Positions 6,952 through 36,397 of a DNA stretch of 64,000 nt are shown here, in pieces; position 1 is the first letter of the stretch, and the number at the start of each line of letters is the position of its first letter. The notes beneath the pieces were generated by a model. The model had not been told where the DNA came from. It did no database searches and saw nothing but the letters and a program-made list of their open reading frames with translations. This DNA is from an uncultured Candidatus Binatia bacterium (GTDB lineage: Bacteria; Desulfobacterota; Binatia; Bin18; CBDCRK01). The stretch is from NCBI GenBank assembly GCA_965220955.1, contig CBDCRK010000011.1, positions 26,773 through 90,772 of the forward strand, in the 5' to 3' direction. The translations under genes and the position numbers were made by a program.

Positions 6952-12645
<5,694 letters not shown>

Positions 12646-21950: not shown

Positions 21951-24467
21951 ATGAACGAAGCCACCGCCCGTATCAAGATCAACAAACTGCTCGAAGCGGC
22001 CGGATGGCGTTTCTTTGCCGAAGGAGACAAACCCGCCAACATCTGCCTTGAACCAAGCGTCACCATCAAGGCGTCCGATCTCGACGCATTTGGTGACGAC
22101 TTCGATAAAACCGCCACGGGCTTCATCGACTTTCTCCTTCTCGACGCCAAGGGATTGCCGCTCATCGTTCTGGAGGCCAAGTCGGAGGACAAGAGTCCTC
22201 TGGTCGGCAAAGAGCAGGCCCGCAAGTACGCCCGCTCGCTGAACTGCCGTTTTGTCATTCTCTCGAACGGTAATCTGCACTACTTCTGGGATCTGGAACG
22301 CGGCAATCCCTACATCATCACCTCGTTCCCGACGCCCGACTCGGTGGACGGCTACCAAAAGATCACGCCCAACCCGCAGCGCCTGATCCATGAGCAGGTC
22401 GATGATGACTATATTATTCTCACCCAGCGGCCCGGCTATGCGTCCGAGGCGGCGTGGAAGAACGAAGACGAACGCCCCGGCTTCATCCAAGCCAACAGGT
22501 TACGCTTTCTGCGTCCCTATCAACTCAAGGCCATTCATGCCCTGCAACGCGCGGTACAGGACGGCAGCGACCGCTTTCTCTTCGAAATGGCGACCGGCAC
22601 GGGTAAGACACTCACCGCAGCCGCCGTCATCAAGCTGTTCCTGCGCTCGGGTAATTCCAGCCGTGTGCTCTTCCTGGTTGACCGGCTGGAATTGGAAGAT
22701 CAGGCCCACAAGGTTTTCAACACCCTGCTTTCGGCCGACTTCCAGACGGTCATCTATAAGGAGAGCCGCGACGACTGGCGACACGCCGAGATCGTTGTCA
22801 GTACCGTCCAATCTCTGCTGTTCAACAACAAGTACCAGCGGCTTTTCTCGCCTACGGATTTCGACTTGGTAATCTCCGACGAGGCGCACCGTTCGATTGG
22901 CGGCAACGCCCGCGCGGTGTTCGACTATTTCGTTGGCTACAAGCTTGGCCTGACCGCAACGCCCCGCGATTACTTAAGGGGCTTCGACCATACCAACCGC
23001 ACAACGGGGGACCTGCGCGAGGCCGAGCGGCGGCTGCTGCTGGACACCTACCGCACCTTCGGCTGCGAGAGCGGACAGCCGACCTTTCGCTACTCACTGC
23101 TCGACGGCGTAAAGGACGGCTTTCTGATCAACCCAACCGTGGTGGACGCGCGTACGGAAGTAACCACCGAACTCCTGTCCGAAGAGGGCTTTGTTGTGTT
23201 GTTCACAGACGACAGCGGCGAGGATAAGCAGGAAGCGTACAAGCAGCAGGAGTTCGAGAAACGCTTCTTTTCCGAAGCCACCAACCAACTGTTCTGCAAG
23301 ACCTTTCTTGAGAATGTGCTACGCGACCCGATCAGCGGCGAGGTCGGCAAGTCCATCATCTTTGCCGTCAGCCAGAACCACGCGGCCAAGCTGGCCCAGA
23401 CCCTCAATCAGATGGCCGACCGTATGTTTCCCGGCAAATACCAATCCGACTTCGCCGTACAGGTCACCTCGCAGATACCCGATGCCCAGCAGTTCACCAT
23501 TAACTTTGCCAATAACAACCTGCTCGGCTCGGGCAACTTCCTGCCCGACTACAAGACCAGCAAGGCTCGCATCTGCGTGACGGTCGGCATGATGACGACC
23601 GGCTACGACTGCACCGATATCCTGAATCTCGGCATGCTCCGGCCCATCTTCTCACCCACCGATTTCGTCCAGATCAAAGGACGCGGTACCCGCAGGCACA
23701 ACTTCCTCGACCAACTTTTCGACAACAACCTCAAGGAGGCCGTTGCCAAGCCGTGGAAAACCGCCTTCAAACTCTTCGATTTCTTTGGCAACTGTGAGTA
23801 CTTCGAGACCGAGTTCAACTACGACGAGGTCCTGAAGCTGCCCCGGCCTCGGGGTAAGGGTAGCGGCAACGGCCCTCAACTCTATGGAACCTACGAGCAT
23901 TTGGGGCGCGACATCCTTTCGATGGTCAAGGAAGAGACCATCGGCTACAAAGGAATGAAGATCGACCGAATGTTCTTTGAGAAGTTCGAGGATGCCGTAC
24001 GGAAAGACCAAATTATTGCCGAAGCCGTTATGGCTGGGCAGTGGGATCGGGTCATCGACTATGTCAACCGCGAAGTTTTCGACAAACCCGAGGAGTACTA
24101 TACCCTCGCCAAGCTGCGCCAAGCCGCCGCCGTGGACCGCCGCCTGACCCTGCGCGAGATTCTGGAGAAGGTCTTCGACCTCATTCCCCGCTTCAAGTCT
24201 AAGGACGAGTTACTGGAAGAAGAATTCGCCAAGTTTGTTGCCGACCACAAGCCCGAAGAGTTCGAGTCCATCCCAGCCCTCAAGACCTATTTCAAGGCTT
24301 ACGCCACCGACGGCTACACCCGCAACATCATCGATAAGCGGCAGTTCACCGACCTCGCAACGAATCCGGTCTTTTCCACCCGCGACTTCCGGGCTGTGCC
24401 AAAGAAATACCGCGCGCTTATTCCCGAGTATGTGAAAGACTATGTACCCCTCAACCAATTCGTCTGA
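21951..24467 (+). CDS. hsdR: Type I restriction enzyme R subunit (HsdR): N-terminal PD-(D/E)xK HSDR_N domain plus SF2 helicase
   Basis: HSDR_N (FIDFLLLD...LEAKSE), helicase motif I EMATGTGKT, DEAH box VISDEAHRS, motif VI QIKGRGTRR. Confidence 0.85.
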   Translation: MNEATARIKINKLLEAAGWRFFAEGDKPANICLEPSVTIKASDLDAFGDDFDKTATGFIDFLLLDAKGLPLIVLEAKSEDKSPLVGKEQARKYARSLNCRFVILSNGNLHYFWDLERGNPYIITSFPTPDSVDGYQKITPNPQRLIHEQVDDDYIILTQRPGYASEAAWKNEDERPGFIQANRLRFLRPYQLKAIHALQRAVQDGSDRFLFEMATGTGKTLTAAAVIKLFLRSGNSSRVLFLVDRLELEDQAHKVFNTLLSADFQTVIYKESRDDWRHAEIVVSTVQSLLFNNKYQRLFSPTDFDLVISDEAHRSIGGNARAVFDYFVGYKLGLTATPRDYLRGFDHTNRTTGDLREAERRLLLDTYRTFGCESGQPTFRYSLLDGVKDGFLINPTVVDARTEVTTELLSEEGFVVLFTDDSGEDKQEAYKQQEFEKRFFSEATNQLFCKTFLENVLRDPISGEVGKSIIFAVSQNHAAKLAQTLNQMADRMFPGKYQSDFAVQVTSQIPDAQQFTINFANNNLLGSGNFLPDYKTSKARICVTVGMMTTGYDCTDILNLGMLRPIFSPTDFVQIKGRGTRRHNFLDQLFDNNLKEAVAKPWKTAFKLFDFFGNCEYFETEFNYDEVLKLPRPRGKGSGNGPQLYGTYEHLGRDILSMVKEETIGYKGMKIDRMFFEKFEDAVRKDQIIAEAVMAGQWDRVIDYVNREVFDKPEEYYTLAKLRQAAAVDRRLTLREILEKVFDLIPRFKSKDELLEEEFAKFVADHKPEEFESIPALKTYFKAYATDGYTRNIIDKRQFTDLATNPVFSTRDFRAVPKKYRALIPEYVKDYVPLNQFV

Positions 24468-24498: not shown

Positions 24499-24927
24499 AT
24501 GATGAGGAAGGAGCAGAAGTATTCGGAATTGACCGGAAAGATCATCGGATGTGCCATGACGGTGCATTCTGCTCTGGGCAATGGTTTTCAGGAGGTGATG
24601 TATCAAAGAGCATTGGCAATCGAAATGGCGGATCAAGGTATTGCCTTCAGCCGTGAACATGAAATGCCCATTTATTACAAAGAGCAACAAGTAGGTACGA
24701 GACGGGTGGATTTTCTGGTAGACAATGTTGTCTGTGTGGAACTGAAGGCTGTTATCCACCTGGAAGACGTCCATCTGGCACAGGCCATCAATTATTTGGA
24801 GGCATACGATCTGGAGGTCGGGTTGCTCATCAATTTTGGCGCCAGAAGTCTTGAATTCAAAAGAGTGACCAACAAGAAGTTCAAGCAAAAGAATCAAGGC
24901 AATCCAAAAATCACAGTATATGCTTGA
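24499..24927 (+). CDS. GxxExxY protein (PD-(D/E)xK-like; commonly embedded in type I R-M loci)
   Basis: LGNGFQEVMYQRAL ... VDFLV ... VELKA signature of the GxxExxY family. Confidence 0.8.
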   Translation: MMRKEQKYSELTGKIIGCAMTVHSALGNGFQEVMYQRALAIEMADQGIAFSREHEMPIYYKEQQVGTRRVDFLVDNVVCVELKAVIHLEDVHLAQAINYLEAYDLEVGLLINFGARSLEFKRVTNKKFKQKNQGNPKITVYA

Positions 24928-26165
24928 CACCGCCACCAAACGCCGTATCGACACCGCCCGCGACATCCTTGTCGGCAAGGTGCCCGACCCCAAGAGCCAG
25001 GTCGAGCAGATCACCATCGCCCTGATCTACAAGTTCATGGACGACATTGACGCCGAGGCCGAAGAGCTGGGCGGCGAGCGCGCGTTCTTTGCTGGCGAGT
25101 TTGCCCGCTTTGGCTGGGCCAAGCTGATGCGCTCCGGCCTGGGCGGACACGAAACCCTGAACCTGTACGCCGAGGCTATTACCAGGATGCCGGAGAATCC
25201 CGGCATTGCGCCGCTGTTCCGTGACATCTTCAACAACGCCTATCTGCCGTATCGCGACCCCGAAACCCTGCGCGCCTTTCTCAAGATCATTGACGAGTTC
25301 ACCTACGATCACTCCGAACGCCTAGGGAGACGCCTTCGAATATCTCCTTTCTGTCCTCGGCTCGCAGGGCGACGCCGGGCAGTTCCGCACCCCGCGGCAC
25401 ATCATCGACTTTATTGTGGAAGTCATTGACCCGAAAAAGGACAACAGCGTGCTTGACCCGGCCTGCGGCACGGCCGGCTTCCTCATCTCGTCCTACAAGC
25501 ACATCCGCACGGCCAACACCGACGAGCACGGCCACAACACGCTCACGCCGGACGACCGGAGCCGCCTCGCCGCCAATTTCAAGGGTTACGATATCTCGCC
25601 CGACATGGTGCGCCTGTCGTTGGTGAACATGTATCTGCACGGTTTCGCCGCCCCGCACATCTACGAGTACGACACGCTCACCAGCGAGGACAAGTGGAAC
25701 GAGTACGCCGGCGTCATTCTGGCCAACCCGCCGTTCATGTCGCCCAAAGGCGGCATCCGGCCTCACAACCGCTTCTCCGTGCAGTCCAAACGCAGCGAGG
25801 TGCTATTCGTGGACTACATGGCCGAGCACCTGACGCCCAACGGTCGCGCTGGCATCATCGTACCCGAGGGCATCATCTTTCAGAGCCAGACCGCTTACAA
25901 GCAACTGCGCAAGATGTTGGTGGAGGAGTATCTTGTTGCCGTGGTGTCGCTGCCCGCAGGAGTGTTCCAGCCCTACTCCGGCGTCAAGACCTCGGTTTTG
26001 ATACTGGACAAGGCGCTAGCGAAGAAAACGGACTGCATCGCCTTTTTCAAGGTAGAGAACGACGGCTTCGACCTGGGCGCGCAACGCCGACCGATTGATA
26101 AGGACGACCTGCCGCAAGCCAGCGCCGAGATTGGTGAATACCTGCGCCGCCTGCGGGCAGGATCG
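24920..26165 (+). pseudogene. hsdM: Disrupted hsdM copy: about 96% nt identical to the 5' 1.25 kb of the intact hsdM-hsdS gene. Frameshift near 25324 and 3' truncation by a repeat element at about 26160
   Basis: Alignment by eye with 28143-29385. CGCCTAGGG versus CGCTTGGG gives a +1 frameshift. The reading frame ends in non-hsdM sequence after EYLRRLRAG. Confidence 0.7.
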
Positions 26166-26266
26166 GCGAATACCAGATTCGCCCCTACGCCCACTACGCA
26201 TTGTTGTGATAGGAAAGCGCAACCTTTCTCAAATTCTGATGTCCACTCAAGTGCAAACCGCTATAG
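26165..26266. repeat. About 100-bp repeat, copy 1 (GGCGAATACCAGATTCGCC ... GGAAAGCGCAACCTTTCTCAAATTCTGATGTCCACTCAAGTGCAAACCGCTATAG), replacing the 3' end of the hsdM copy
   Basis: Second copy at 34216-34310, about 90% identical. Shares the GGCGAAT-N5-ATTCGCC palindrome and the CCCCTAC motif with the 166-bp MITE, in opposite orientation. Confidence 0.5.
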
Positions 26267-26529
26267 TCAGAATTTTGTGATTACATCGCTAGAGCCGTAA
26301 CGGAGAGGCGACCTCAACCGGTTACAGCCCTCCTGCCAACCCTTTGGCCTGTTTGACGTTCTCAGGCGCGGGGGAATCCGGGACAATGGTGATATGGCTA
26401 CTCAAGTGCCTGAAAGAGTGTTGTTCAGCCAACATTCTGCTTGACCCATGATTACTGGAGGTGTATTCATCATTGATGTTTTAGAATCGTTATACTTGAC
26501 AACATTTTGGGAACAATTCATAGTTCGCT

Positions 26530-26823
26530 ATGCGGATCATCAGCAAGAAGAGGTTGCGGGAGTGTTGGGAGCGGCATGCGGACGCCGAGGAGCCGCTGCT
26601 TGCCTGGTATAGGGAGGTCGTGAAGGAGGAGTGGGAGACGCCGGTACAGATAAAGGAGAAATACCCGAATGCCCGCATTCTCGGTGACAGCCGGGTAGTC
26701 TTCAACATCAAGGGTAACCATTATCGGCTCGTGGCGAAAATCAACTATCCGGGACGCATTGTCTATGTCCGCTTTGTGGGAACACATGCCGAATATGACC
26801 TCGTGAATGTTCTGGAGGTGTAA
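26530..26823 (+). CDS. higB: HigB-family type II toxin (RelE/ParE superfamily mRNA interferase)
   Basis: NHYRLVAKINYPGRIVYVRFVGTHAEYD matches the HigB toxin pattern. The toxin gene precedes the HTH antitoxin, as in HigBA. Confidence 0.7.
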   Translation: MRIISKKRLRECWERHADAEEPLLAWYREVVKEEWETPVQIKEKYPNARILGDSRVVFNIKGNHYRLVAKINYPGRIVYVRFVGTHAEYDLVNVLEV

Positions 26824-26824
26824 G

Positions 26825-27418
26825 ATGGCCACTGGAAAGATCAAGCCGGTCCGGACCAAGCAGGATTATGAGGACGCGCTGGCTCGGATCGACGCATTAA
26901 TGGATGCGACGCCCGGCAGCCCGGAGTTCGATGAGCTCGACATCCTCGTCGATCTGGTTGAACTCTATGAGAGCAAGCACGAGCCGATGGGCTATCCGAG
27001 TCCGCTCGCCGCGATCGAGTTCCGCATGGAGCAGGGCAATTTGCGACCGCGTGACCTTATCCCCTTCATCGGGAGCCGGGCAAAGGTGTCCGAGGTGCTC
27101 TCCGGCAAGCGTGCCCTCACCATGCCGATGGCACGGGCGCTCCATAAGCATCTGGGTATTCCGGCGGATGTATTGCTGCGCGATCCGGATGTAGACCTGG
27201 ACGATTCGCTTGCCGACATCAATTGGAGTCGGTTTCCTGTCAAGGACATGGCGAAGCTGAGCTGGATTCGAGATGGTCTCAACCTGGCGGAGCACGCCGA
27301 GGCGATTATGCGCGATTTGATTGACCGGGCGGGGGGGGCCGGATGTCGCCTGTGCTGCCCTCTACCGGAAGAACGATCATATGCGTGCAAACGCCAAGGT
27401 GGACGCTTATGCCCTTAA
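26825..27418 (+). CDS. higA: HigA-like XRE-family HTH antitoxin. Probably the N-terminal part of a frameshifted HTH + ImmA/IrrE fusion
   Basis: HTH VSEVLSGKRALTMPMARALHKHLGIPADVLL. Overlaps the start of higB by 17 nt. The frame is lost at the G8 tract 27331-27338. Confidence 0.65.
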   Translation: MATGKIKPVRTKQDYEDALARIDALMDATPGSPEFDELDILVDLVELYESKHEPMGYPSPLAAIEFRMEQGNLRPRDLIPFIGSRAKVSEVLSGKRALTMPMARALHKHLGIPADVLLRDPDVDLDDSLADINWSRFPVKDMAKLSWIRDGLNLAEHAEAIMRDLIDRAGGAGCRLCCPLPEERSYACKRQGGRLCP

Positions 27419-28052
27419 GGCGTGGTGCTGGCAGGTTCTAGCGACGGGGAACGAGAACTCGCCAAAGACAGAGTACATACCTGGCACCGTGATGCCGCAC
27501 TTTCTCAGGGAGGTTGCGCAGTTGAGTTCGTTCGAAGACGGTCCGCGACTGGCCAGGGAGGTGCTGGCAAAACATGGCATCGCGCTAGTGAGCGTGCCGC
27601 ATCTGCCGAGGACCTACCTCGACGGAGCGGCGCTCCGGCTCAGGGATGGGCGGCCAGTGGTCGGGTTGACCCTGCGCTACGACCGGATCGACAATTTCTG
27701 GTTCTGCCTGTTGCACGAACTGGCACACGTGGGTCGCCACCTGGACAACAACCAGGGCAATGCCTTTGTCGATGACCAGACGTTACGTGGGGTGGAAGGC
27801 AGGCGGGAAGACCCGAGAGAGGTGCAGGCCGACGAATGGGCGACCGAGGCCCTCGTTCCTAGGGCGGCTTGGGAAGCGAGCGCGGCACGGGAGCGTCCGA
27901 CACCCATGGCGGTCATGAATCTGGCCCATGCACTGCAGGTCCATCCGGCGATCATCGCCGGCAAGATTCGATATGAGCACCAGAACTATCGGCTGCTGTC
28001 GCAGTTTGTGGGCACCGGCGAGGTCCGGCGGCAGCTTGGCATAATGGTGTGA
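27321..28052 (+). CDS. ImmA/IrrE-family (COG2856/DUF955) Zn metallopeptidase domain. TTG-initiated as drawn; more likely the C-terminal part of the HigA-like protein
   Basis: HEXXH motif LLHELAHVGRH. Joining to the upstream ORF needs a single G deletion in the G8 run. Confidence 0.65.
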   Translation: MTGRGGPDVACAALYRKNDHMRANAKVDAYALKAWCWQVLATGNENSPKTEYIPGTVMPHFLREVAQLSSFEDGPRLAREVLAKHGIALVSVPHLPRTYLDGAALRLRDGRPVVGLTLRYDRIDNFWFCLLHELAHVGRHLDNNQGNAFVDDQTLRGVEGRREDPREVQADEWATEALVPRAAWEASAARERPTPMAVMNLAHALQVHPAIIAGKIRYEHQNYRLLSQFVGTGEVRRQLGIMV

Positions 28053-28085
28053 GGTTGAGGTAAACGTGTCGATTACAGGCTCCGG

Positions 28086-28137
28086 TTAATCCTACAAATC
28101 CCAAAAATCACTTAATCCTACAAATCCCAAAAATCAC
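28086..28137. repeat. 26-bp tandem duplication (TTAATCCTACAAATCCCAAAAATCAC x2) immediately upstream of hsdM-hsdS
   Basis: Seen directly. The upstream hsdM copy carries a single copy of the AATCCAAAAATCAC-like unit. Confidence 0.6.
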
Positions 28138-28142
28138 AGTAT

Positions 28143-30614
28143 ATGCTTGACACCGCTACCAAACGCCGCATCGACACCGCCCGCGACATCCTCGTGGGCA
28201 AAGTCCCCGACCCCAAGAGCCAGGTCGAGCAGATCACCATTGCGCTGATCTACAAGTTCATGGACGACATTGACGCCGAGGCCGAAGAGCTGGGCGGCGA
28301 GCGCGCGTTCTTTGCTGGCGAGTTTGCCCGCTACGGTTGGGCCAAGCTGATGCGCTCCGGCCTGGGCGGACACGAAACCCTGAACCTGTACGCCGAGGCT
28401 ATTACCAGGATGCCGGAGAATCCCGGCATTGCGCCGCTGTTCCGTGACATCTTCAACAACGCCTATCTGCCCTACCGCGACCCCGAGACCCTACGCGCCT
28501 TTCTCAAGGTCATTGACGAGTTCACCTACGATCACTCCGAACGCTTGGGAGACGCCTTCGAATATCTCCTTTCTGTCCTCGGCTCGCAGGGTGACGCCGG
28601 GCAGTTCCGCACCCCGCGGCACATCATCGACTTTATTGTGGAAGTCATTGATCCGAAAAAGGACGATACCGTGCTTGACCCAGCTTGTGGCACCAGCGGG
28701 TTCCTGATCTCGTCCTACAAGCACATCCGCACGGCCAACACCGGCGGACACGGCCATGACACGCTGACGCCGGACGAGCGGGGCCGACTCGCCGCCAACT
28801 TCGAGGGCTACGACATCTCGCCCGACATGGTGCGCCTGTCGCTGGTGAACATGTATCTGCACGGCTTTGCCGCCCCGCACATCTACGAGTACGACACGCT
28901 CACCAGCGAGGACAAGTGGAACGAGTACGCCGATGTGATCCTGGCCAACCCGCCGTTCATGTCACCCAAAGGCGGTATCCGGCCCCACAACCGCTTCTCC
29001 GTGCAGTCCAAACGCAGCGAGGTACTATTCGTTGATTACATGGCCGAGCACCTGACGCCCACGGGCCGCGCCGGCATCATCGTACCCGAAGGCATCATCT
29101 TTCAGAGCCAGAACGCCTACAAGCAGCTGCGCAAAATGCTGGTCGAGGAGTTTCTTGTTGCCGTGGTCTCGCTGCCCGCAGGAGTGTTCCAGCCCTACTC
29201 CGGGGTCAAGACCTCGATTCTGATTCTCGACAAATCGCTGGCAAAGAAGACCAACCGTATCGCCTTCTTCAAGGTCGAACACGACGGCTACGACCTGGGC
29301 GCCCAGCGCCGGGCGATTGACAAAAACGACCTGCCGCAGGTACAAGCGGGACTCGCTGAATATCTGCGTCGGGTGCGGGCGGGCGAAGCACTAGGCGACT
29401 TCGAGCCGACGTATGGGCTCATCGTCGAGAAGGGGAAATTAGCCGCGAACGAGGAATACAACCTCAGCGGGGAGCGGTACAAGGAACGAGAAACCCAATA
29501 TCTCACAATCGACCCCAAATGGCCGATGGTGGCGTTGGGGGAGGTCATTCAAGATAAGCCGAGGAACGGATACTCTGGAAAACCTGTTCCCTATCCAACT
29601 GACCTAAAAGTTCTTTCGCTGAGTGCCACAACGTCAGGAACGCTGGACATCTCTCAGCACAAGTATCTCGACGAGAATATCTCTCTTGACTCACCGTGCC
29701 GATGCCGGCGGGGTGACATTTATCTTCAGCGTGGCAATACCAAAGAGTTGGTTGGCACCGCTGCGCTCTTCGACGTTGATGAATCAAACCTTGTTTATCC
29801 AGACCTCATGATTCGTGTGCGGGCGGATGAAGGGAAGATTACGAGTCAATTTCTCCTATGTGTTCTTCAGAGCGATTCCGTTCGAGAATACCTGACTCGG
29901 AACGCGGTCGGGTCGGCCGGAAGCATGCCGAAGATCAACCAAAAGATCGTTGAGCAGATTCCAATACCCCTCCCACCGCTGGAAGTGCAGCGGGAAATCG
30001 TGGCGGAGATAGAGGGCTACCAGAAGGTGATAGACGGCGCTCGGGCGGTGGTCGAAAATTATAGGCCGCATATCCCCATTGATCCCGCTTGGCCGCTGGT
30101 AGCGTTGGGGGAGGTGCTGACTCTGCAAAGGGGACACGACCTTCCAAAGAAAAATTTTGTTGAGGGCAAATATCCTGTTGTTGGTTCAAACGGTATTATT
30201 GGATACCACAATGAATTTAAGTATTCTGGTCCAGGCGTGGTTACTGGGAGAAGTGGAACAATTGGTAAAGTTTGTTTCATTAAAGAAAATTACTGGCCTC
30301 ATAATACCTCCCTATTTGTTAAGGATTTCAAAGGTAACAGCAAAAAATATATTTTCTTTTTACTTGAATCACTAGATTTAAGAAGCTTGGGAGAAAGAAC
30401 CTCCGCCGTTCCTTCACTTGATAGAAATAATGCGCATAGGCTAAATGTATATTTACCACCACTCGAAACCCAAACCCAAATTGTAGTCGAAATCGAGGCC
30501 GAGCAGTCCCTCGTCAGTGCCAACCGTGAACTGATCGAGCGTTTCGAGAAGAAGATTCAGGCTGCTATCTCCCGCATCTGGGGTGAAGATACGACAGGCT
30601 CTCCAGAAGCATAG
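28143..30614 (+). CDS. hsdM: Fused Type I R-M methyltransferase-specificity protein: HsdM N6-adenine MTase followed by two HsdS target-recognition domains
   Basis: HsdM_N domain, FRTPRHII, catalytic NPPF (LANPPFMSPKGG). C-terminal half has two TRDs, each followed by the conserved LPPLEVQ / LPPLETQ helical spacer. Confidence 0.85.
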   Translation: MLDTATKRRIDTARDILVGKVPDPKSQVEQITIALIYKFMDDIDAEAEELGGERAFFAGEFARYGWAKLMRSGLGGHETLNLYAEAITRMPENPGIAPLFRDIFNNAYLPYRDPETLRAFLKVIDEFTYDHSERLGDAFEYLLSVLGSQGDAGQFRTPRHIIDFIVEVIDPKKDDTVLDPACGTSGFLISSYKHIRTANTGGHGHDTLTPDERGRLAANFEGYDISPDMVRLSLVNMYLHGFAAPHIYEYDTLTSEDKWNEYADVILANPPFMSPKGGIRPHNRFSVQSKRSEVLFVDYMAEHLTPTGRAGIIVPEGIIFQSQNAYKQLRKMLVEEFLVAVVSLPAGVFQPYSGVKTSILILDKSLAKKTNRIAFFKVEHDGYDLGAQRRAIDKNDLPQVQAGLAEYLRRVRAGEALGDFEPTYGLIVEKGKLAANEEYNLSGERYKERETQYLTIDPKWPMVALGEVIQDKPRNGYSGKPVPYPTDLKVLSLSATTSGTLDISQHKYLDENISLDSPCRCRRGDIYLQRGNTKELVGTAALFDVDESNLVYPDLMIRVRADEGKITSQFLLCVLQSDSVREYLTRNAVGSAGSMPKINQKIVEQIPIPLPPLEVQREIVAEIEGYQKVIDGARAVVENYRPHIPIDPAWPLVALGEVLTLQRGHDLPKKNFVEGKYPVVGSNGIIGYHNEFKYSGPGVVTGRSGTIGKVCFIKENYWPHNTSLFVKDFKGNSKKYIFFLLESLDLRSLGERTSAVPSLDRNNAHRLNVYLPPLETQTQIVVEIEAEQSLVSANRELIERFEKKIQAAISRIWGEDTTGSPEA

Positions 30615-30675: not shown

Positions 30676-31728
30676 ATGATTTTAGTTTTTGTAGGTGCGG
30701 GAGGCTCAGCCGCTGTTGATCCAGATCAGTATCCGACCACTGTCGAGTTCTTCAAGCGTCTTCCCAAGGAAATAACACAGCAACCCCTTTTCACCCTCGT
30801 CCGTGAATTCCTAATGACGCAGAAGGAGGATGGACAGCCTATCGATATTGAAGAAGTCCTGTGGAGCCTTGATAAACTTCAAGAGTATTTCTCGTTGTCC
30901 CGCGCTACCCATACTATAGAGGGATGGATCATGGCGAAGAATCGTCTTAACCAATTGGATGGCAACGCGCTTCCTGGAGGGAGTAACCCGCTTTTGGGAG
31001 GGATAGACAACATCAGCGTTAATCACTTAACACCGCTACGAGATAGCATCAATGCCAAGGTACATGAATTCTATGTGAAGCGTCCCGACGAGAACAAGTT
31101 GTCGGATTGGGTTAACCTCCTCCGGCATATCGAAGGGCTTGACCCGGTTATTGAGATTTTCACAACGAACTATGATCTGGTGCTGGAAACAGCCGTGAAT
31201 AGAGCCAAAATAAGGACGACAACAGGTCGAGAGTTCGATGGTTTGCATACGTTTTTGAATACCGCCCTCTGGGATGAACCCAGCGGACCCCCTAAGTATC
31301 ACGGACGGCTGACCAAACTACACGGGTCCATGGACTGGCAACGCAGAGGCAATACAATTCTTTGTAGCGACCTTTATACCGGAAACCCCCAACAACACTC
31401 AATCTTGTATCCAGGATTCAAAGGAGAGCCCAACGAGGAGCCCTTCATCAAATTCCATGAACATCTACGAGCTGTGGTACGCGAAGCAGGGGCAGCGTTT
31501 TTTATCGGTTTTGCCTTTCGCGACGACTATATTAACACAATCCTCTCTGGGCTCCGTCCGAAGACTCCCAAATACGTCATTGACAAAGAAGACTCACCTC
31601 CCGCTCTTGCTTTCCTAGATGGATGCAAGCATTTCAGCAATGGGCTTACGGTAGGGGCGATCCAGGACTGCATAAAAAGCCTAGCTGCCGTCATTTTTCA
31701 GGAGTTGAAACAACATTTAAAACCGTAG
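30676..31728 (+). CDS. SIR2-like (SIR2_2, PF13289-type) standalone 350-aa protein, a candidate NAD+-consuming defense effector
   Basis: N-terminal Rossmann GxG (ILVFVGAGGSAAVD), FTTNYDLVLE, KLHGSMDW and C-terminal FIGFAFRDDYIN motifs typical of the defense-associated SIR2_2 family. Stop is followed by hairpin 31729-31754. Confidence 0.7.
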   Translation: MILVFVGAGGSAAVDPDQYPTTVEFFKRLPKEITQQPLFTLVREFLMTQKEDGQPIDIEEVLWSLDKLQEYFSLSRATHTIEGWIMAKNRLNQLDGNALPGGSNPLLGGIDNISVNHLTPLRDSINAKVHEFYVKRPDENKLSDWVNLLRHIEGLDPVIEIFTTNYDLVLETAVNRAKIRTTTGREFDGLHTFLNTALWDEPSGPPKYHGRLTKLHGSMDWQRRGNTILCSDLYTGNPQQHSILYPGFKGEPNEEPFIKFHEHLRAVVREAGAAFFIGFAFRDDYINTILSGLRPKTPKYVIDKEDSPPALAFLDGCKHFSNGLTVGAIQDCIKSLAAVIFQELKQHLKP

Positions 31729-32194: not shown

Positions 32195-32470
32195 GTGGGT
32201 CAACTGGCGTACAAGGAGGCAGAGATGATTCCATTCAATAAGTGCCCGGTGTGTAGTGGAGAAGTCGTTGCGAAGCAGACCGAAAAGCTCCTCCGTGGGG
32301 GTGTTAATTTCGCTACGGTGACCGTCCCTGCGGAAGTCTGTCTGCGCTGTGGAGAGCATCTGTACTCTCCCGAGACGATTCGTCTGTTCGAGCAAGTCCG
32401 CCGAAAGCTCAGCGCTCAAGACGTGGAAGGATTTGAACCCTTGGGAAGATCGTTCCGCATTCCGAACTAG
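32195..32470 (+). CDS. YgiT-type zinc-ribbon protein (MqsA-antitoxin-like N-domain), standalone
   Basis: CPVCSGE ... VCLRCGEHLYSPE paired CxxC motifs. Preceded by an AGGAGG RBS. Confidence 0.5.
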   Translation: MGQLAYKEAEMIPFNKCPVCSGEVVAKQTEKLLRGGVNFATVTVPAEVCLRCGEHLYSPETIRLFEQVRRKLSAQDVEGFEPLGRSFRIPN

Positions 32471-32479
32471 GGGTGGCGG

Positions 32480-32767
32480 GTGAAGAGGCTAAAGCGGAGA
32501 CGGAGGAGGCTAAAAGTTAGAGACGCGATAAAGCCCATGAGGAGAATCGCTGTGAAATACGCTATCCTCATCGAAAGAACCGACAACGGCTACTCCGCTT
32601 ATGCGCCCGATTTACCCGGTTGCATAGCCGCCGCAGACACAAAAATCGAAGTGGAAGAACTGATCCGCGAAGCTCTCAGCCTACATCTCGAATCACTCCG
32701 CGAACACGGCGACCCAATCCCCGAACCGCAAACTACCGCCACCCTGATTGAGGTCCCACCCGTTTAA
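32480..32767 (+). CDS. HicB-like antitoxin N-domain (UPF0150/DUF1902-like). Start probably at MRRIAVKYA (about 32537)
   Basis: KYAILIERTDNGYSAYAPDLPGCIAAADTKIEVEELIREALSLHLESLREHGDPIPEP matches the HicB N-terminal RNase-H-like fold pattern. No HicA partner found. Confidence 0.5.
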   Translation: MKRLKRRRRRLKVRDAIKPMRRIAVKYAILIERTDNGYSAYAPDLPGCIAAADTKIEVEELIREALSLHLESLREHGDPIPEPQTTATLIEVPPV

Positions 32768-32855
32768 GCGTTGCCGCCCAAAGTCCCAACTTTCATCCAC
32801 CACCGCCAGCAACCCGGCTAGGCCTCGTCACCAAAATCGGATCGACCCCGCCCGG

Positions 32856-32930
32856 GTCAATGCCAACCGCAAATTGATCGAGGGCTTCGAGAAGAAGATT
32901 CAGGATGTCATTGTTCCTAGCAGGGGATAA
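32856..32930 (+). pseudogene. hsdS: Orphan duplicate of the hsdS 3' terminus (encodes ANRKLIEGFEKKIQDVI). No TRD upstream
   Basis: About 80% nt identity to 30520-30580, the end of hsdM-hsdS (ANRELIERFEKKIQAAIS). Confidence 0.5.
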
Positions 32931-33014
32931 ATGCGTAAACGTCCCCGTCAAGTAGACGGGGTAAAACTAGAGCTTCCGGGACTTGTTCACGGAACGAGCG
33001 TAACCTACCTCCCC

Positions 33015-33980
33015 CTACTCCACGGTTTCGTATGCGGTCGGCAGGTTATCCGGCTGGTAGTCGTTCTTAGGATTGTCCCGGCGCTTGAATACGCCTTTGT
33101 GGATCTTCGCTCCTGCCGGGATCTTGCGGACCTCTTCGCCGCGAAAAATCCAGAAACCCGTAAACGACTGGTGCAACTTGTCATGTGGGTTGCCTACGCG
33201 ATCCGCAAGCCTATCCTCTTCTACCCGCATCCCGCACGCTACCGCCTTGCCGAGCATCCAATGCAAGGCGATGTTCGACAACCCGCGTTCGCTGTACCCG
33301 CCGCCTACGTCCGCATGGACGCCCGCGAACCAGACCTGCTCAAGGGTCTGATTCGTCCCTACCCTGCGCTCGTCCCAGAGAAAAGGCGGAAAATCGTTTC
33401 GCTTCTCGTCTATGGCCAGGGCGTGGAAGCCGTGGACAACCTCGGGGTTGAGCCGCGCGTCATGAAAACGCTTGCCCGCGTTCAGTGCCAACGACGCTAC
33501 GGTGTCCCACACGCCGATGAAGTGGACCGGACAGGCACGGCCGAACGTCTTGCGGAAGCCGCGCGCAAGGTCGGTGTTTTTGGGGGTGTTGTAAACCTTC
33601 GAGGCGTATTCGACAAGGTTCCCGGCGTCCGCGCGGAGCAGTCCGCATTTGTAAAGCATCCCGGCCAGCGAACGCACGGTGAACGCGCCACGGCTGAACC
33701 CGAACAGATACACGCGATCTCCGCTTTCGTAACAGCCCATCAGGTAGCGATAGGCGTCCTCGACGTTTTTCTGGAGCCCGTAGCCGGTCGCTTGGTCGGC
33801 CAGGGATGTCAGTTTTCCACTCTCTTCGTGGTATTCCCAGCCGCCCGTGCCTACGCCCGGGTCGTAGTACGCGACCTGGGACGCGTCTTTTACGGCCAGA
33901 TCGTAGGTTTCCACAACGTTCGTGTTGTTGCGTCCGTATTCGTTGCCGGTTCCGTCGCAGCAAACGACGATGTTCTTCAT
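33015..33980 (-). CDS. DUF2235 alpha/beta-hydrolase (T6SS Tle1 phospholipase-like catalytic domain) protein
   Basis: VVCCDGTGN, GxSxG-like LFGFSRGAFTVRSLAGM, GVWDTV and HADVGGGY motifs. The opposite-strand 355-aa ORF is antisense noise. Confidence 0.75.
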   Translation of the reverse strand: MKNIVVCCDGTGNEYGRNNTNVVETYDLAVKDASQVAYYDPGVGTGGWEYHEESGKLTSLADQATGYGLQKNVEDAYRYLMGCYESGDRVYLFGFSRGAFTVRSLAGMLYKCGLLRADAGNLVEYASKVYNTPKNTDLARGFRKTFGRACPVHFIGVWDTVASLALNAGKRFHDARLNPEVVHGFHALAIDEKRNDFPPFLWDERRVGTNQTLEQVWFAGVHADVGGGYSERGLSNIALHWMLGKAVACGMRVEEDRLADRVGNPHDKLHQSFTGFWIFRGEEVRKIPAGAKIHKGVFKRRDNPKNDYQPDNLPTAYETVE

Positions 33981-34139
33981 ACAATTCTCTTGGATTAGCA
34001 AGACTGTCGGATTGCGCTACGCTAATCCGACCTATGGGCTGCCGGTAGTCCATCTCGTATAGCGTGTTCTCAATGTCAAGACTACTATAATGCCGGCTTA
34101 TAGCATCTTTCATTTGGGTAGGCGTCTGTTGATGATCCT

Positions 34140-34310
34140 GCTCCCTGTTTTGTAGGGGCGATCCTGTCGGCCATCCTGGCCGCGTGATCGCCCACTGTGC
34201 AAGGTCGCGGGCGGGCCGGCGAATACGAGATTCGCCCCTACGCTTTGTGGTGATAGGAAAGCGCAACCTTTCTCAAATTCTGATGTCCACTCAAGTGCAA
34301 ACCGCTATAG
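34140..34310. repeat. Diverged, inverted relative of the 166-bp MITE fused to copy 2 of the 100-bp repeat (perfect GGCGAATACGAGATTCGCC palindrome at 34218-34236)
   Basis: The reverse complement reads ...GTAGGGGCGAATCTCGTATTCGCC...GGGCGATCAC...CGCCCCTACA..., matching the MITE motif order. 34216-34310 is about 90% identical to 26165-26266. Confidence 0.45.
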
Positions 34311-34477
34311 CCCGCGGTGGGGAAATTGAACCATGCTACTGTCTGGCTCGAAGGCTTCGGCCGATGCCTCTGCGATGCAGACCGATCGCATCCCCGTGGG
34401 TATCTATTGCAGCGCTGCTGTTGAAAGAAAGGCCGATATGGTCTATATTGGACCAATTCTTATTTGGAGGCTGGATC

Positions 34478-34756
34478 ATGAGCCGTTCTACACCCTGCCA
34501 GACCTGGACCGTTGCCGAGGCCAAGGCTCGCCTTTCCGAGATCTTGCGTCTCGCCGAAGAGGAGGGGCCTCAACATATCGGCAAACGTAAGTCCTTCGTG
34601 GTAGTCCCCGCGCACGTATGGGCCGAGAAGCAGTCGCAGCGCAAACCCATGGGCCAGTGGCTGATAGACAACATACCCCGGGGCGTGAATCTTGATATTC
34701 CTAGCCGTCGCGAGCCCGGGCGCGAGGTTCCGTTCAACAACGGCGATATAGAGTGA
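34478..34756 (+). CDS. Phd/YefM-family type II antitoxin
   Basis: WTVAEAKARLSEILRLAEEEGPQHIGKRKSFVVVP pattern. GGAGG RBS. 4-bp overlap with the downstream PIN gene. Confidence 0.7.
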   Translation: MSRSTPCQTWTVAEAKARLSEILRLAEEEGPQHIGKRKSFVVVPAHVWAEKQSQRKPMGQWLIDNIPRGVNLDIPSRREPGREVPFNNGDIE

Positions 34757-35172
34757 GCGGCTTCCTTCTCGACACTAACGTTGTTTCGGAGTTGACAAAG
34801 GATGCGCCGGACTCGCGGGTTGTTGAGTTCCTTGCCGCTCACGACGACCTATGGCTGTCGACTATCGTCCTGCATGAGCTGGACTTTGGCTTGAATCTGC
34901 TCCCGCTGGGGCGACGCCGCAACCGCATAAGGGCTGCGTTGTTGGCATTCGTCATGGAGTACGAGGACCGAATCCTGGCGGTGGACCGTCCAGAAGCTGA
35001 GCAGGCAGCTACTCTGAGGGCGCAAGCACATCGATCCGGCCGTGTCCTGCATCTGGGCGATGCGCTGATCGCCGGGACGGCCAAGACGCATAATCTCGCT
35101 GTTGCGACGAGGAACGTGGTGGACTTCGATGGTTTGGACGTCGCCGTTACCAACCCTTGGGAGGCAATGTGA
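34753..35172 (+). CDS. vapC: VapC-family PIN-domain toxin (GTG start)
   Basis: LLDTNVVSEL ... conserved acidic residues (D6, E, D at LGDALIAGTA, D near the C-terminus) of PIN RNases. Confidence 0.75.
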   Translation: MSGFLLDTNVVSELTKDAPDSRVVEFLAAHDDLWLSTIVLHELDFGLNLLPLGRRRNRIRAALLAFVMEYEDRILAVDRPEAEQAATLRAQAHRSGRVLHLGDALIAGTAKTHNLAVATRNVVDFDGLDVAVTNPWEAM

Positions 35173-35209
35173 AAGGCGTCATCGAATCCACTGTGGAAAA
35201 AACTATAAA

Positions 35210-35683
35210 TCAGTCAGAATTTTCCAATGAAGCGCGCGCCCTGCTTGTCGTTTCCTCAACCGCGACACTCGTAGAAATAGAATAGATATGAATATCAGGA
35301 TGCTCCCGGCAAAAAATTCGGAAAATTTCATCCGCAAAAGCCCGCCCGATAAACGGTACCCCGGAAAAATCCAGTACGATTTCCTTGAATTTATCAAAGC
35401 GAGCCAGGACTCTTCTTGCCTGCGAACGGGAAACTAACTGTTCATTGCCGTATTGTGCAAGCTTGACCGGGACCAGGGTGCGAGAAAAGCCGTACTCTCC
35501 CTCTCCGGAAGTGTAGGCGTCAAACACCTCCGTGGTCGTTCTTTGCGAATAGATACCCATCTTCATGCTGACATAGGTTCCTGGTGATGGTTGCCGCTCT
35601 TCCGACTCTATGAGCCAGTCTTGTCTGTCGGTGCTCGCACTGAAAAAGAGACCGCCCGACAAAATACTGAATTTGTCGAACAT
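35210..35683 (-). CDS. Hypothetical protein with a C-terminal DUF4325-like (STAS-like) domain; standalone
   Basis: SRSQARRVLARFDKFKEIVLDFSGVPFIGRAFADEIFRIF resembles the DUF4325 consensus. The N-terminal 80 aa is unassigned. Confidence 0.4.
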   Translation of the reverse strand: MFDKFSILSGGLFFSASTDRQDWLIESEERQPSPGTYVSMKMGIYSQRTTTEVFDAYTSGEGEYGFSRTLVPVKLAQYGNEQLVSRSQARRVLARFDKFKEIVLDFSGVPFIGRAFADEIFRIFCREHPDIHIYSISTSVAVEETTSRARASLENSD

Positions 35684-35709
35684 CCGCGAAGTAAAAAATA
35701 TACCTTACC

Positions 35710-35766
35710 TTGACAATAAAGTGATTGATAAATATTATCTGACTATGGTCATAACTACGGTCATAA
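35710..35766 (+). promoter_or_regulatory. Near-consensus sigma70 promoter (TTGACA-17-TATTAT) plus tandem direct-repeat operator (GGTCATAA x2) and AAGGAG RBS, upstream of the Phd/VapC operon at 35787
   Basis: -35 at 35710-35715, -10 at 35733-35738, direct repeats at 35747-35754 and 35759-35766. Confidence 0.5.
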
Positions 35767-35786
35767 TATTCAAATAAGGAGAAGGA

Positions 35787-36020
35787 ATGCCTTCCATTTC
35801 AAAAAGTAAATTGAAAGCCAATATGCTGCGGATCTTTCGCAATATTGAGGAAACCGGCGAAGAATTGATCGTTACAGATCACAATCGCCCCGTTTTACGC
35901 ATTCAGCCTATTGCCCAGAAAAAGACCGTGGAAGAGGTGTTCGGCACCATTCAGGGCAAAGTCATCTACCGCGAAGACATCAATACACCGACCACCGACG
36001 AATGGGGAGAGCTGAGATGA
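35787..36020 (+). CDS. Phd/YefM-family type II antitoxin
   Basis: KANMLRIFRNIEETGEELIVTDHNRPVLRIQPI pattern. Overlaps the downstream PIN gene. Confidence 0.65.
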   Translation: MPSISKSKLKANMLRIFRNIEETGEELIVTDHNRPVLRIQPIAQKKTVEEVFGTIQGKVIYREDINTPTTDEWGELR

Positions 36021-36397
36021 TTGTTCTGGACACTTCAGCCCTCATCTTCTGGACCCTGGATCAAGAGCGGCTGTCTCAAACCGCGGCACAAGCAATCTCA
36101 GACGCCGACCGCATTGCCCTCAGCTCCATCTCTATCTGGGAAATCGGCATCAAAATGCAAAAAGAAAAACTCTTCATACCGGTCTCCATCCAGGAATTCA
36201 CGGATAAACTGGAACAAATCGACCGCCTCGATATTCTCCCTATAGACGTCCAGACCTGGATCAAAAACCTCGAACTCAACTGGGATCACCGCGACCCTGC
36301 CGACCGCACCATTGTTGCTACTGCCAGTCTGCACGCCTGCGCGCTCGTTACCTCCGATTCTGCTATCCGGGCATTTTATTCACAGACAATTTGGTAA
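36017..36397 (+). CDS. vapC: VapC-family PIN-domain toxin
   Basis: MIVLDTSALIFW ... SIWEIGIK ... VATASLHACALVTSD PIN motifs. Confidence 0.7.
   Translation: MIVLDTSALIFWTLDQERLSQTAAQAISDADRIALSSISIWEIGIKMQKEKLFIPVSIQEFTDKLEQIDRLDILPIDVQTWIKNLELNWDHRDPADRTIVATASLHACALVTSDSAIRAFYSQTIW

Follow-up and report, generated by a model that had tools for sequence, protein, structure and literature searches.

The PD-lambda-2 system of Escherichia coli, described by Vassallo et al. (2022, Nat Microbiol; PMC9519451), is built from a HigB-like protein (component A), a HigA-like helix-turn-helix (HTH) protein fused to a C-terminal peptidase (component B), and a third, P4-antitoxin-like protein (component C). 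In E. coli, B alone is toxic and A rescues, C is necessary to defend against lambda-vir, and protection from phage by abortive infection has been reported for this E. coli system only (PMC9519451). A broader class, in which Xre-COG2856 fusions share operons with RelE or PIN toxins, was recognized by Makarova et al. (2009; PMC2701414). Lau et al. (2022; bioRxiv 10.1101/2022.04.27.489752) described a vapC-like gene and a CapH-CapP fusion ahead of DISARM, a parallel to the placement of a HigB-like gene and a B gene before defence genes that is considered here. We analysed a relative of PD-lambda-2 in a stretch of 64,000 nucleotides (nt), hereafter the window, of contig CBDCRK010000011.1, assembled from an uncultured Candidatus Binatia bacterium. 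In this assembly the B gene is found as two overlapping open reading frames (ORFs), ORF1 and ORF2, which are the pieces of a single gene separated by a +1 frameshift at a run of eight G (G8).

The two ORFs lie on the plus strand in different frames (26807/26825-27418 and 27321-28052) and overlap by 98 nt, and within the overlap stands the homopolymer GGGGGGGG, the sole run of at least eight nucleotides in the window. Removal of one G from GGGGGGGG yields an ORF of 408 amino acids (aa) with the junction LIDRAGGPDVACAALYRKNDHMRANAK. A first-pass annotation, made from the letters of the window alone, had reported the G8 tract, the two overlapping ORFs and a fusion of about 408 aa upon deletion of one G, all of which the sequence bears out. 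Translation of B starts at ATG 26825, which is preceded at a distance of 8 nt by GGAGG (duplex energy −10.6 kcal/mol) and agrees with the MATGKIKP beginning of the homologues; the same check of the sequence upstream of ATG 26807 revealed no Shine-Dalgarno sequence. At the 5' end of ORF2, the start candidates TTG 27321 (−1.9 kcal/mol) and ATG 27381 (−3.5 kcal/mol) have no convincing ribosome-binding site. An internal TTG at 27522 follows a strong GGGAGG (−11.8 kcal/mol) and would allow a peptidase-only product of 175 aa, a signal that may be coincidental coding sequence. No stop codon and no second lesion were found in the peptidase frame.

The length of the tract is not in itself remarkable. 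Runs of eight G or C are rarer in the window than chance would have them (one observed, 5.7 expected), as are runs of seven (five observed, 18.6 expected), so that G8 by itself is no more than chance, and what is non-random is its coincidence with the switch of frame.

To place the split among relatives, the repaired 408-aa sequence was used in a protein search, which returned thousands of relatives. The best 120 are single proteins of 403-414 aa with one exception of 354 aa, and close and distant homologues alike are single proteins, of 401-421 aa. The best match, P0001, is 98% identical over 100% of the length of the repaired protein. A sample of 82 related loci was then assembled, 80 from species-representative genomes and two from metagenomes (L001-L082). 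At all 82 the junction is read through in one frame, the residues R-A-G-G across it are conserved throughout, and in 78 of the 82 a HigB-like gene lies directly upstream of B. The nearest relative, L001, represents the same genomic neighbourhood and is 95.7% identical over 26074-29340; its B gene aligns to that of the window with a single 1-nt gap, located inside the G run, where L001 has seven G (G7) and the window has G8. At the same site L002 reads GGGCGGG, and its homology to the window is limited to 26263-28086, as expected of a portable cassette. From these comparisons, the ancestral reading of the tract is GCG GGG GGG CCG (A-G-G-P), with seven G. The central claim of the first-pass annotation, one HTH and peptidase gene split by a frameshift in G8, therefore stands on the single frame at every related locus, the R-A-G-G residues across the junction, and the one-G difference from L001.

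The family to which this gene belongs has already been named and partly tested. The PADLOC model PD-Lambda-2_A (PDLC03979) matches the HigB-like protein with an E value of 5e-39 over residues 1-96 of 97, and PD-Lambda-2_B (PDLC03982), tested through P0001, matches with an E value of 1.2e-138 over residues 3-396 of 402; the PADLOC capP model matches B weakly (E 1.1e-6). These profiles place the two genes of the locus together as a module of PD-lambda-2 A/B type. A PADLOC search of 14 neighbouring ORFs, the hsdMS and SIR2 genes among them, gave no PD-Lambda-2_C match. The HigB-like protein also matches PF09907 (HigB_toxin, E 7e-31) and E. coli HigB (5IFG_A, E 3.8e-9), and is 99% identical to the HigB of L001 and of L006.

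The domains of B were assigned from several kinds of comparison, and the HTH and ImmA/IrrE calls of the first-pass annotation are upheld by them. Residues 9-114 align to nearly the whole of the 138-aa E. coli HigA (5IFG_B, 5YCL_A), and the match to 5IFG_B has an E value of 2.5e-6 with the single sequence and 4e-12 with the family profile; HTH_3 was found in 15 of 33 family members. On residues 276-377, PF06114 (Peptidase_M78) scores a marginal 22.7 bits against a gathering threshold of 22, and the same domain was found in 31 of the 33 family members, with a best E value of 1e-7. H297, E298 and H301 of the HEXXH motif and the downstream E332 are invariant in the 33 homologues. Structure models were used as weak support only. 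The AlphaFold model of full-length B, with a predicted local distance difference test score (pLDDT) of 68, returned Foldseek matches to the HigA fold only, with E. coli HigA at the top (6JQ4, 6KMQ). The C-terminal domain by itself gave a poor model (pLDDT 53), for which Foldseek ranked four PprI/IrrE structures first (8SLN, 8SLM, 3DTI, 3DTE), all non-significant (E 0.2-1.1, template modelling score ~0.3). By analogy with ImmA/ImmR, IrrE/DdrO and CapP/CapH, the intact B peptidase probably cleaves the HTH part upon a stress signal, for example single-stranded DNA.

A layout of two natural genes, in which an independent HigA and an independent ImmA/IrrE peptidase overlap at their ends, has a precedent in the unfused Xre and COG2856 pairs known elsewhere, such as ImmR/ImmA and CapH/CapP, but is hardly credible here. 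Every related locus reads the junction in a single frame, the last 26 residues of ORF1 come from conserved B sequence translated out of frame, the 5' end of ORF2 has no nearby start with a ribosome-binding site, and deleting one G brings identity back to 98% over 408 aa. The layout was rejected on these grounds, none of the 82 loci showing the two ORFs. An evolved use of the tract also appears unlikely, whether as a functional switch that reversibly uncouples the peptidase from the HigA module or as a site of recoding through transcriptional slippage or +1 ribosomal frameshifting from G8. G tracts of seven or eight are slippage-prone, as in the contingency genes of Neisseria, Campylobacter and Haemophilus. 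Three related contigs carry six, seven and eight G, and the break falls within the inter-domain linker, so that both halves stay whole. Moreover, 13 of 52 breakpoints of other truncated homologues lie in a 12-residue window right after R-A-G-G, although this enrichment comes from a biased sample, gathered by a search seeded with the truncated product and drawn mostly from low-coverage contigs. The tract itself, however, is not maintained. When the longest G run within six codons from the conserved Arg was counted at 81 loci, it was two or three G long at 61, four at two, five at 15, six at two, and seven at one (L001). Synonymous interruption by GGC or GGA is the rule, which argues that there is no selection to keep the tract, and these counts point to codon choice in one lineage, with the long tract as its by-product. 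Recoding is not required by any relative, since all encode the protein in frame; the window has no Rfam match, although no search aimed at a stimulatory Shine-Dalgarno sequence or structure was made. A pattern scan of JGI metagenome contigs for the junction with six to ten G gave no match. Programmed frameshifting was rejected because the tract is not conserved and the relatives are all in frame, and on this comparison of sequences the G tract is probably not an evolved switch or recoding site. A more elaborate proposal, that the R-A-G-G linker codons are a recurrent selectable breakpoint and that a long G tract would stochastically uncouple the peptidase from the DNA- and partner-binding half, toggling the sensor module, and possibly expression of hsdMS and SIR2, between a triggerable and a locked state, seems to us very unlikely. 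Of the three options that the first-pass annotation had offered, a phase-variable site is thus disfavoured by the lack of conservation of the tract, while an inactivating mutation and a sequencing error both remain.

Between these two, we favour, with a probability of about 0.55, an extra G that is real. In a defence island that is decaying, it would be either a recent mutation by replication slippage or the allele carried by most of a mixed population. The split and its position can be read directly from the assembly, whereas the presence of the extra G in the DNA of the organism is deduced from the assembly consensus, and a sequencing or assembly artefact, with the eighth G a miscall of homopolymer length and the organism's own B gene intact at G7 and 408 aa, is in our view the less probable account, though still a serious one. 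The consensus is otherwise clean: 38 of the 53 homopolymers of at least six in the window sit inside intact long ORFs, three 7-mers among them, ORFs of 1897, 1052, 860, 838 and 823 aa are unbroken, and a screen of overlapping same-strand frames in the window found no second homopolymer-linked frame break. The hsdM' pseudogene, about 1 kb upstream, carries a 1-nt insertion outside any homopolymer and a truncation, indicating that gene decay in the island is real. Real truncations are also known within the B family, with in-frame stops in the related loci L043, L065 and L069, and several independent scaffolds of short-read style carry N-terminal B remnants (P0191, 18 members) that lack the peptidase part. 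Since the E. coli homologue of B is toxic alone (PMC9519451), loss-of-function alleles are expected, and the truncated product of the window still includes everything that can be aligned with the E. coli HigA of 138 aa. Several observations weigh the other way. The break occurs at the single longest homopolymer of the window, and the closest relative has G7 with an intact gene. Consensus errors of long reads concentrate at the longest homopolymers; the relatives come mostly from long-read projects yielding metagenome-assembled genomes (MAGs), and low-coverage related contigs vary at this very tract, with G6 in L083 (3.76x) and G7 in L001 (2x) against G8 in the window. Fragmented genes are common in such contigs, as with N6_Mtase in three pieces in L001 or the Logan contig L084. 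In truncated homologues from public assemblies, the frameshifts gather at two homopolymers, one being the G run, with breakpoints right after R-A-G-G, and the other an AAAAAC run, with breakpoints between K and N of Y-R-K-N; miscalls of homopolymers would explain this as well as slippage. Finally, comparison of the 3' frame with L001 gives nine synonymous and three non-synonymous changes and a ratio of non-synonymous to synonymous substitution rates (dN/dS) of 0.10, like that of intact pairs; this ratio and the intact peptidase frame are as expected of an artefact or of a very recent event, and the HigB-like gene is intact as well. A search of other assemblies for the exact frameshifted product found no identical allele, only other truncated relatives from a biased sample.

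As a separate observation, several samples contain remnants of 118-132 aa that consist of HigA only, without a peptidase part and often without HigB (P0121-P0240; L083-L091).

If the mutation is real, its consequences can be proposed as follows. One G would have been gained in the lineage-specific G7 tract of B (GCG GGG GGG CCG), bringing translation from ATG 26825 to a premature end after 171 native and 26 missense residues (197 aa). The peptidase domain, then in another frame and lacking any start of its own with a convincing ribosome-binding site, would be lost unless translated separately. Full-length B, which by analogy with E. coli PD-lambda-2 would be the toxic or effector-side component, would be removed, leaving a complete HigA-like DNA-binding fragment beside an intact HigB-like partner. 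The 197-aa product keeps the entire HigA-equivalent region and should still bind partner and operator, and the uncoupled halves would, by analogy, lock the module. The first-pass annotation had suggested that the lesion leaves HigB with only a truncated antitoxin. The roles may be the reverse: because B is toxic alone and A rescues in the E. coli prototype (PMC9519451), the labels of HigB as toxin and HigA as antitoxin may be inverted for the PD-lambda-2 A/B family.

The region upstream of the HigB-like gene (higB) was analysed for signals that control the module. The start codon of higB, ATG 26530, follows the CATAGT of a sigma-70-like match (Table 1) after 5 nt. The scan found two such consensus matches with 1.3 expected, so the match lacks significance, yet the same −35/−10 arrangement is present in the close relatives L001-L006. 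Ahead of higB no Shine-Dalgarno sequence is seen (−3.3 kcal/mol, compared with −10.6 at the start of B), and this, together with the placement of the promoter, fits a leaderless or near-leaderless transcript. When the family as a whole was examined for a strict TAnnnT −10 element 4-8 nt ahead of the higB start, 12 were counted, compared with 9.4 in shuffles, which is no enrichment; support for a conserved leaderless promoter is thus confined to the close relatives. The TTGACA and CATAGT elements of the weak leaderless-type promoter in the first-pass annotation are thus present.

A stronger signal lies in the spacer of this promoter, where the box TTTTGGGAACAA is found. Of 69 loci drawn from many phyla, 54 have a T(T/G)GG(G/T)A box upstream of higB (6.5 in shuffles), and 20 have two copies (0.26 in shuffles). 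Upstream of higB in L001-L082, and at 26480-26529 in the window, its long form is T(T/G)GG(G/T)A(A/T)C, often in two direct copies about 25 nt apart. No inverted-repeat operator was found upstream of higB, the conserved element being the direct TTGGGA-type box, and this box is a likely operator of the B HTH domain. The sequence TTTTGGGA occurs six times in the 64-kb window, three of them at 26505, 28099 and 28125; the latter two belong to a perfect 26-nt tandem duplication, TTAATCCTACAAATCCCAAAAATCAC, in the gap that separates the stop codon of B from the start of hsdMS. Because the higB-promoter box recurs, inverted, in this duplication upstream of hsdMS, B may also control this restriction-modification gene, a link through TTTTGGGA that was drawn after seeing the data.

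The distribution of the cassette gives a broader view of what the pair may do. The best genome matches to the repaired B are Candidatus Binatia MAGs, at 88-91% identity, and the cassette was found, with a protein identity of 58-91%, in MAGs (L003-L082) from 10 or more phyla or classes, including Binatia, Entotheonellaceae, Nitrospirales, Dehalococcoidia, Caldilineaceae, Latescibacterota, Dadabacteria, Spirochaetia, Vicinamibacterales, Alphaproteobacteria and others, a spread that suggests extensive horizontal transfer in one kind of habitat. Among 70 genes directly after B (L002-L081), at least nine encode a CBASS cyclase and seven PDC-S34 (HAD-like); others encode a type I methylase, TIR, GmrSD, Schlafen/AlbA_2, AAA_15/21, HNH or DUF4238 proteins, and the remainder are housekeeping genes. 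The gap between B and the defence gene is sometimes just 4-14 nt. An hsdMS-like fusion downstream of B was suspected in L067 and ruled out on checking. Since the cassette spans many phyla and very often stands directly before other defence genes, its distribution suggests that the A/B pair is a portable sensor or regulator unit for variable cargo rather than a plain toxin-antitoxin pair.

Table 1. Coordinates of the module and of neighbouring features in the window
Feature	Coordinates	Strand	Remarks
hsdR	21951-24467		hsdM' directly after
hsdM' pseudogene	24920-26163	+	diverged copy (90-96% identity) of first 1.2 kb of hsdMS
sigma-70-like promoter match	26496-26524	+	TTGACA 26496-26501, 17-nt spacer, CATAGT 26519-26524; 10/12 positions
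TTTTGGGAACAA box, candidate HTH operator	26505-26516	+	conserved box upstream of higB, inside promoter spacer
higB-like gene, PD-lambda-2 component A, 97 aa, intact	26530-26823	+	PF09907 HigB_toxin, PADLOC, 5IFG_A
B gene, 5' piece	26825-27418	+	171 native residues, then 26 out-of-frame residues, TAA stop
G8 homopolymer, +1 frameshift site	27331-27338	+	G7 in L001, GGGCGGG in L002, G6 in L083
B gene, 3' piece, residues 172-408	27339-28052	+	linker and ImmA/IrrE-type M78 zinc-peptidase domain; TGA 28050-28052
HELAH zinc-binding motif (HEXXH)	27714-27728	+	read from sequence
TTAATCCTACAAATCCCAAAAATCAC, perfect 26-nt tandem duplication, two copies	28086-28137		between B stop and hsdMS start; TTTTGGGA on minus strand in each copy
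hsdMS, type I methylase fused to specificity subunit, 823 aa	28143-30614	+	N6_Mtase 6e-50, Methylase_S 3.5e-21
SIR2-like gene	30676-31728		after hsdMS
HicB-like antitoxin	32480-32767
Tle1-like phospholipase-domain gene	33015-34001	−
two PIN/VapC genes with small upstream partners	34753-35172 and 36002-36397
DUF4325 gene	35210-35683	−

The 5' piece of B encodes the HigB-binding helices and the Xre-type HTH, and spans the whole equivalent of E. coli HigA. Downstream, hsdMS also matches the PADLOC models MTase_I and Specificity_I and is one ORF with two target-recognition domains, an HsdM-HsdS fusion being uncommon. Upstream, the insertion in hsdM' lies near 25322 (CTAGGG in place of CTTGGG), and the pseudogene is cut off where a direct repeat of about 100 nt begins. 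Copies of this repeat are located at 26164-26266 and 34217-34310, and in L001 at 77-226 and 9908-10011; they are 87-96% identical and open with the hairpin GGCGAATAC(C/G)AGATTCGCC. In the window they bracket an 8-kb block of defence and toxin-antitoxin genes (the higBA-like pair, hsdMS, SIR2, HicB-like and Tle1-like genes). Among 90 fetched loci the repeat occurs only in the lineage of the window; it may represent a small mobile element, or else a scar left by recombination or insertion. The interval 32195-36397 is dense in toxin-antitoxin and defence content. Third-position GC of the higBA-like and hsdM ORFs (26524-28052, 24869-26300) is 0.68-0.77, against ~0.45-0.65 in most long ORFs of the window, as would fit an island that was acquired horizontally. 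Scanning the window for Rfam families and tRNA genes gave no match.

For annotation, these results mean that the two ORFs should be entered together as a single gene with a frameshift, bearing a flag for either a pseudogene or a possible sequencing error, and assigned to the PD-lambda-2 A/B family rather than to a HigA gene and a separate peptidase gene. As a lesion this is nothing unusual, whether it arose as a recent pseudogenising mutation or as a consensus error, and both the family and its architecture were known before; the family context is a modest lead. Natural truncations that lack the peptidase could help to dissect the role of the A/B pair as sensor or regulator.

Compared with the E. 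coli PD-lambda-2 system, the locus has the same first two components in the same order, a HigB-like gene and then an HTH-peptidase fusion. It differs in that B is not one uninterrupted ORF as assembled, in that the position of component C is taken by a type I hsdMS gene 90 nt after B, and in that its host is uncultured and its activity in defence is putative. The HigB/HigA pair of E. coli K-12 (YgjN/YgjM; 5IFG, 6KML, 6JQ4) shares with it a RelE-fold HigB, a HigA with N-terminal binding helices and an HTH, and an upstream toxin gene whose stop codon lies 1 nt from the start codon of its partner. The B protein of the window, in contrast, has an additional linker and peptidase of ~290 residues, and in the PD-lambda-2 prototype the toxicity relation is reversed (PMC9519451).

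Likeness to the contingency genes of Neisseria, Haemophilus and Campylobacter (restriction-modification and surface genes) lies in a coding G tract of seven or eight, in a gene of a defence island, with the frame set by the length of the tract; unlike in those genes, the tract of the window is lineage-specific and is not kept in relatives. As in the predicted three-component toxin-antitoxin class of Xre-COG2856 fusions with RelE or PIN (PMC2701414), an HTH-zinc-peptidase fusion shares an operon with a RelE-family gene, and the recurrence of HTH-COG2856 fusions beside RelE-type toxins, which the first-pass annotation had given as established knowledge, is indeed stated there. That class, however, is a computational grouping without an established mechanism, whereas the family of the window is one specific and highly conserved subfamily. 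With ImmR/ImmA of ICEBs1, DdrO/IrrE of Deinococcus and CapH/CapP of CBASS and further immune operons, the locus has in common an M78 peptidase paired with an Xre HTH repressor. CapH/CapP is also alike in that an HTH and M78 pair lies upstream of defence genes, here hsdMS and SIR2. CapH and CapP, however, are usually two proteins encoded on the strand opposite to the operon they regulate, while the pair in the window is fused, co-directional with the genes that follow, and preceded by a HigB-like gene.

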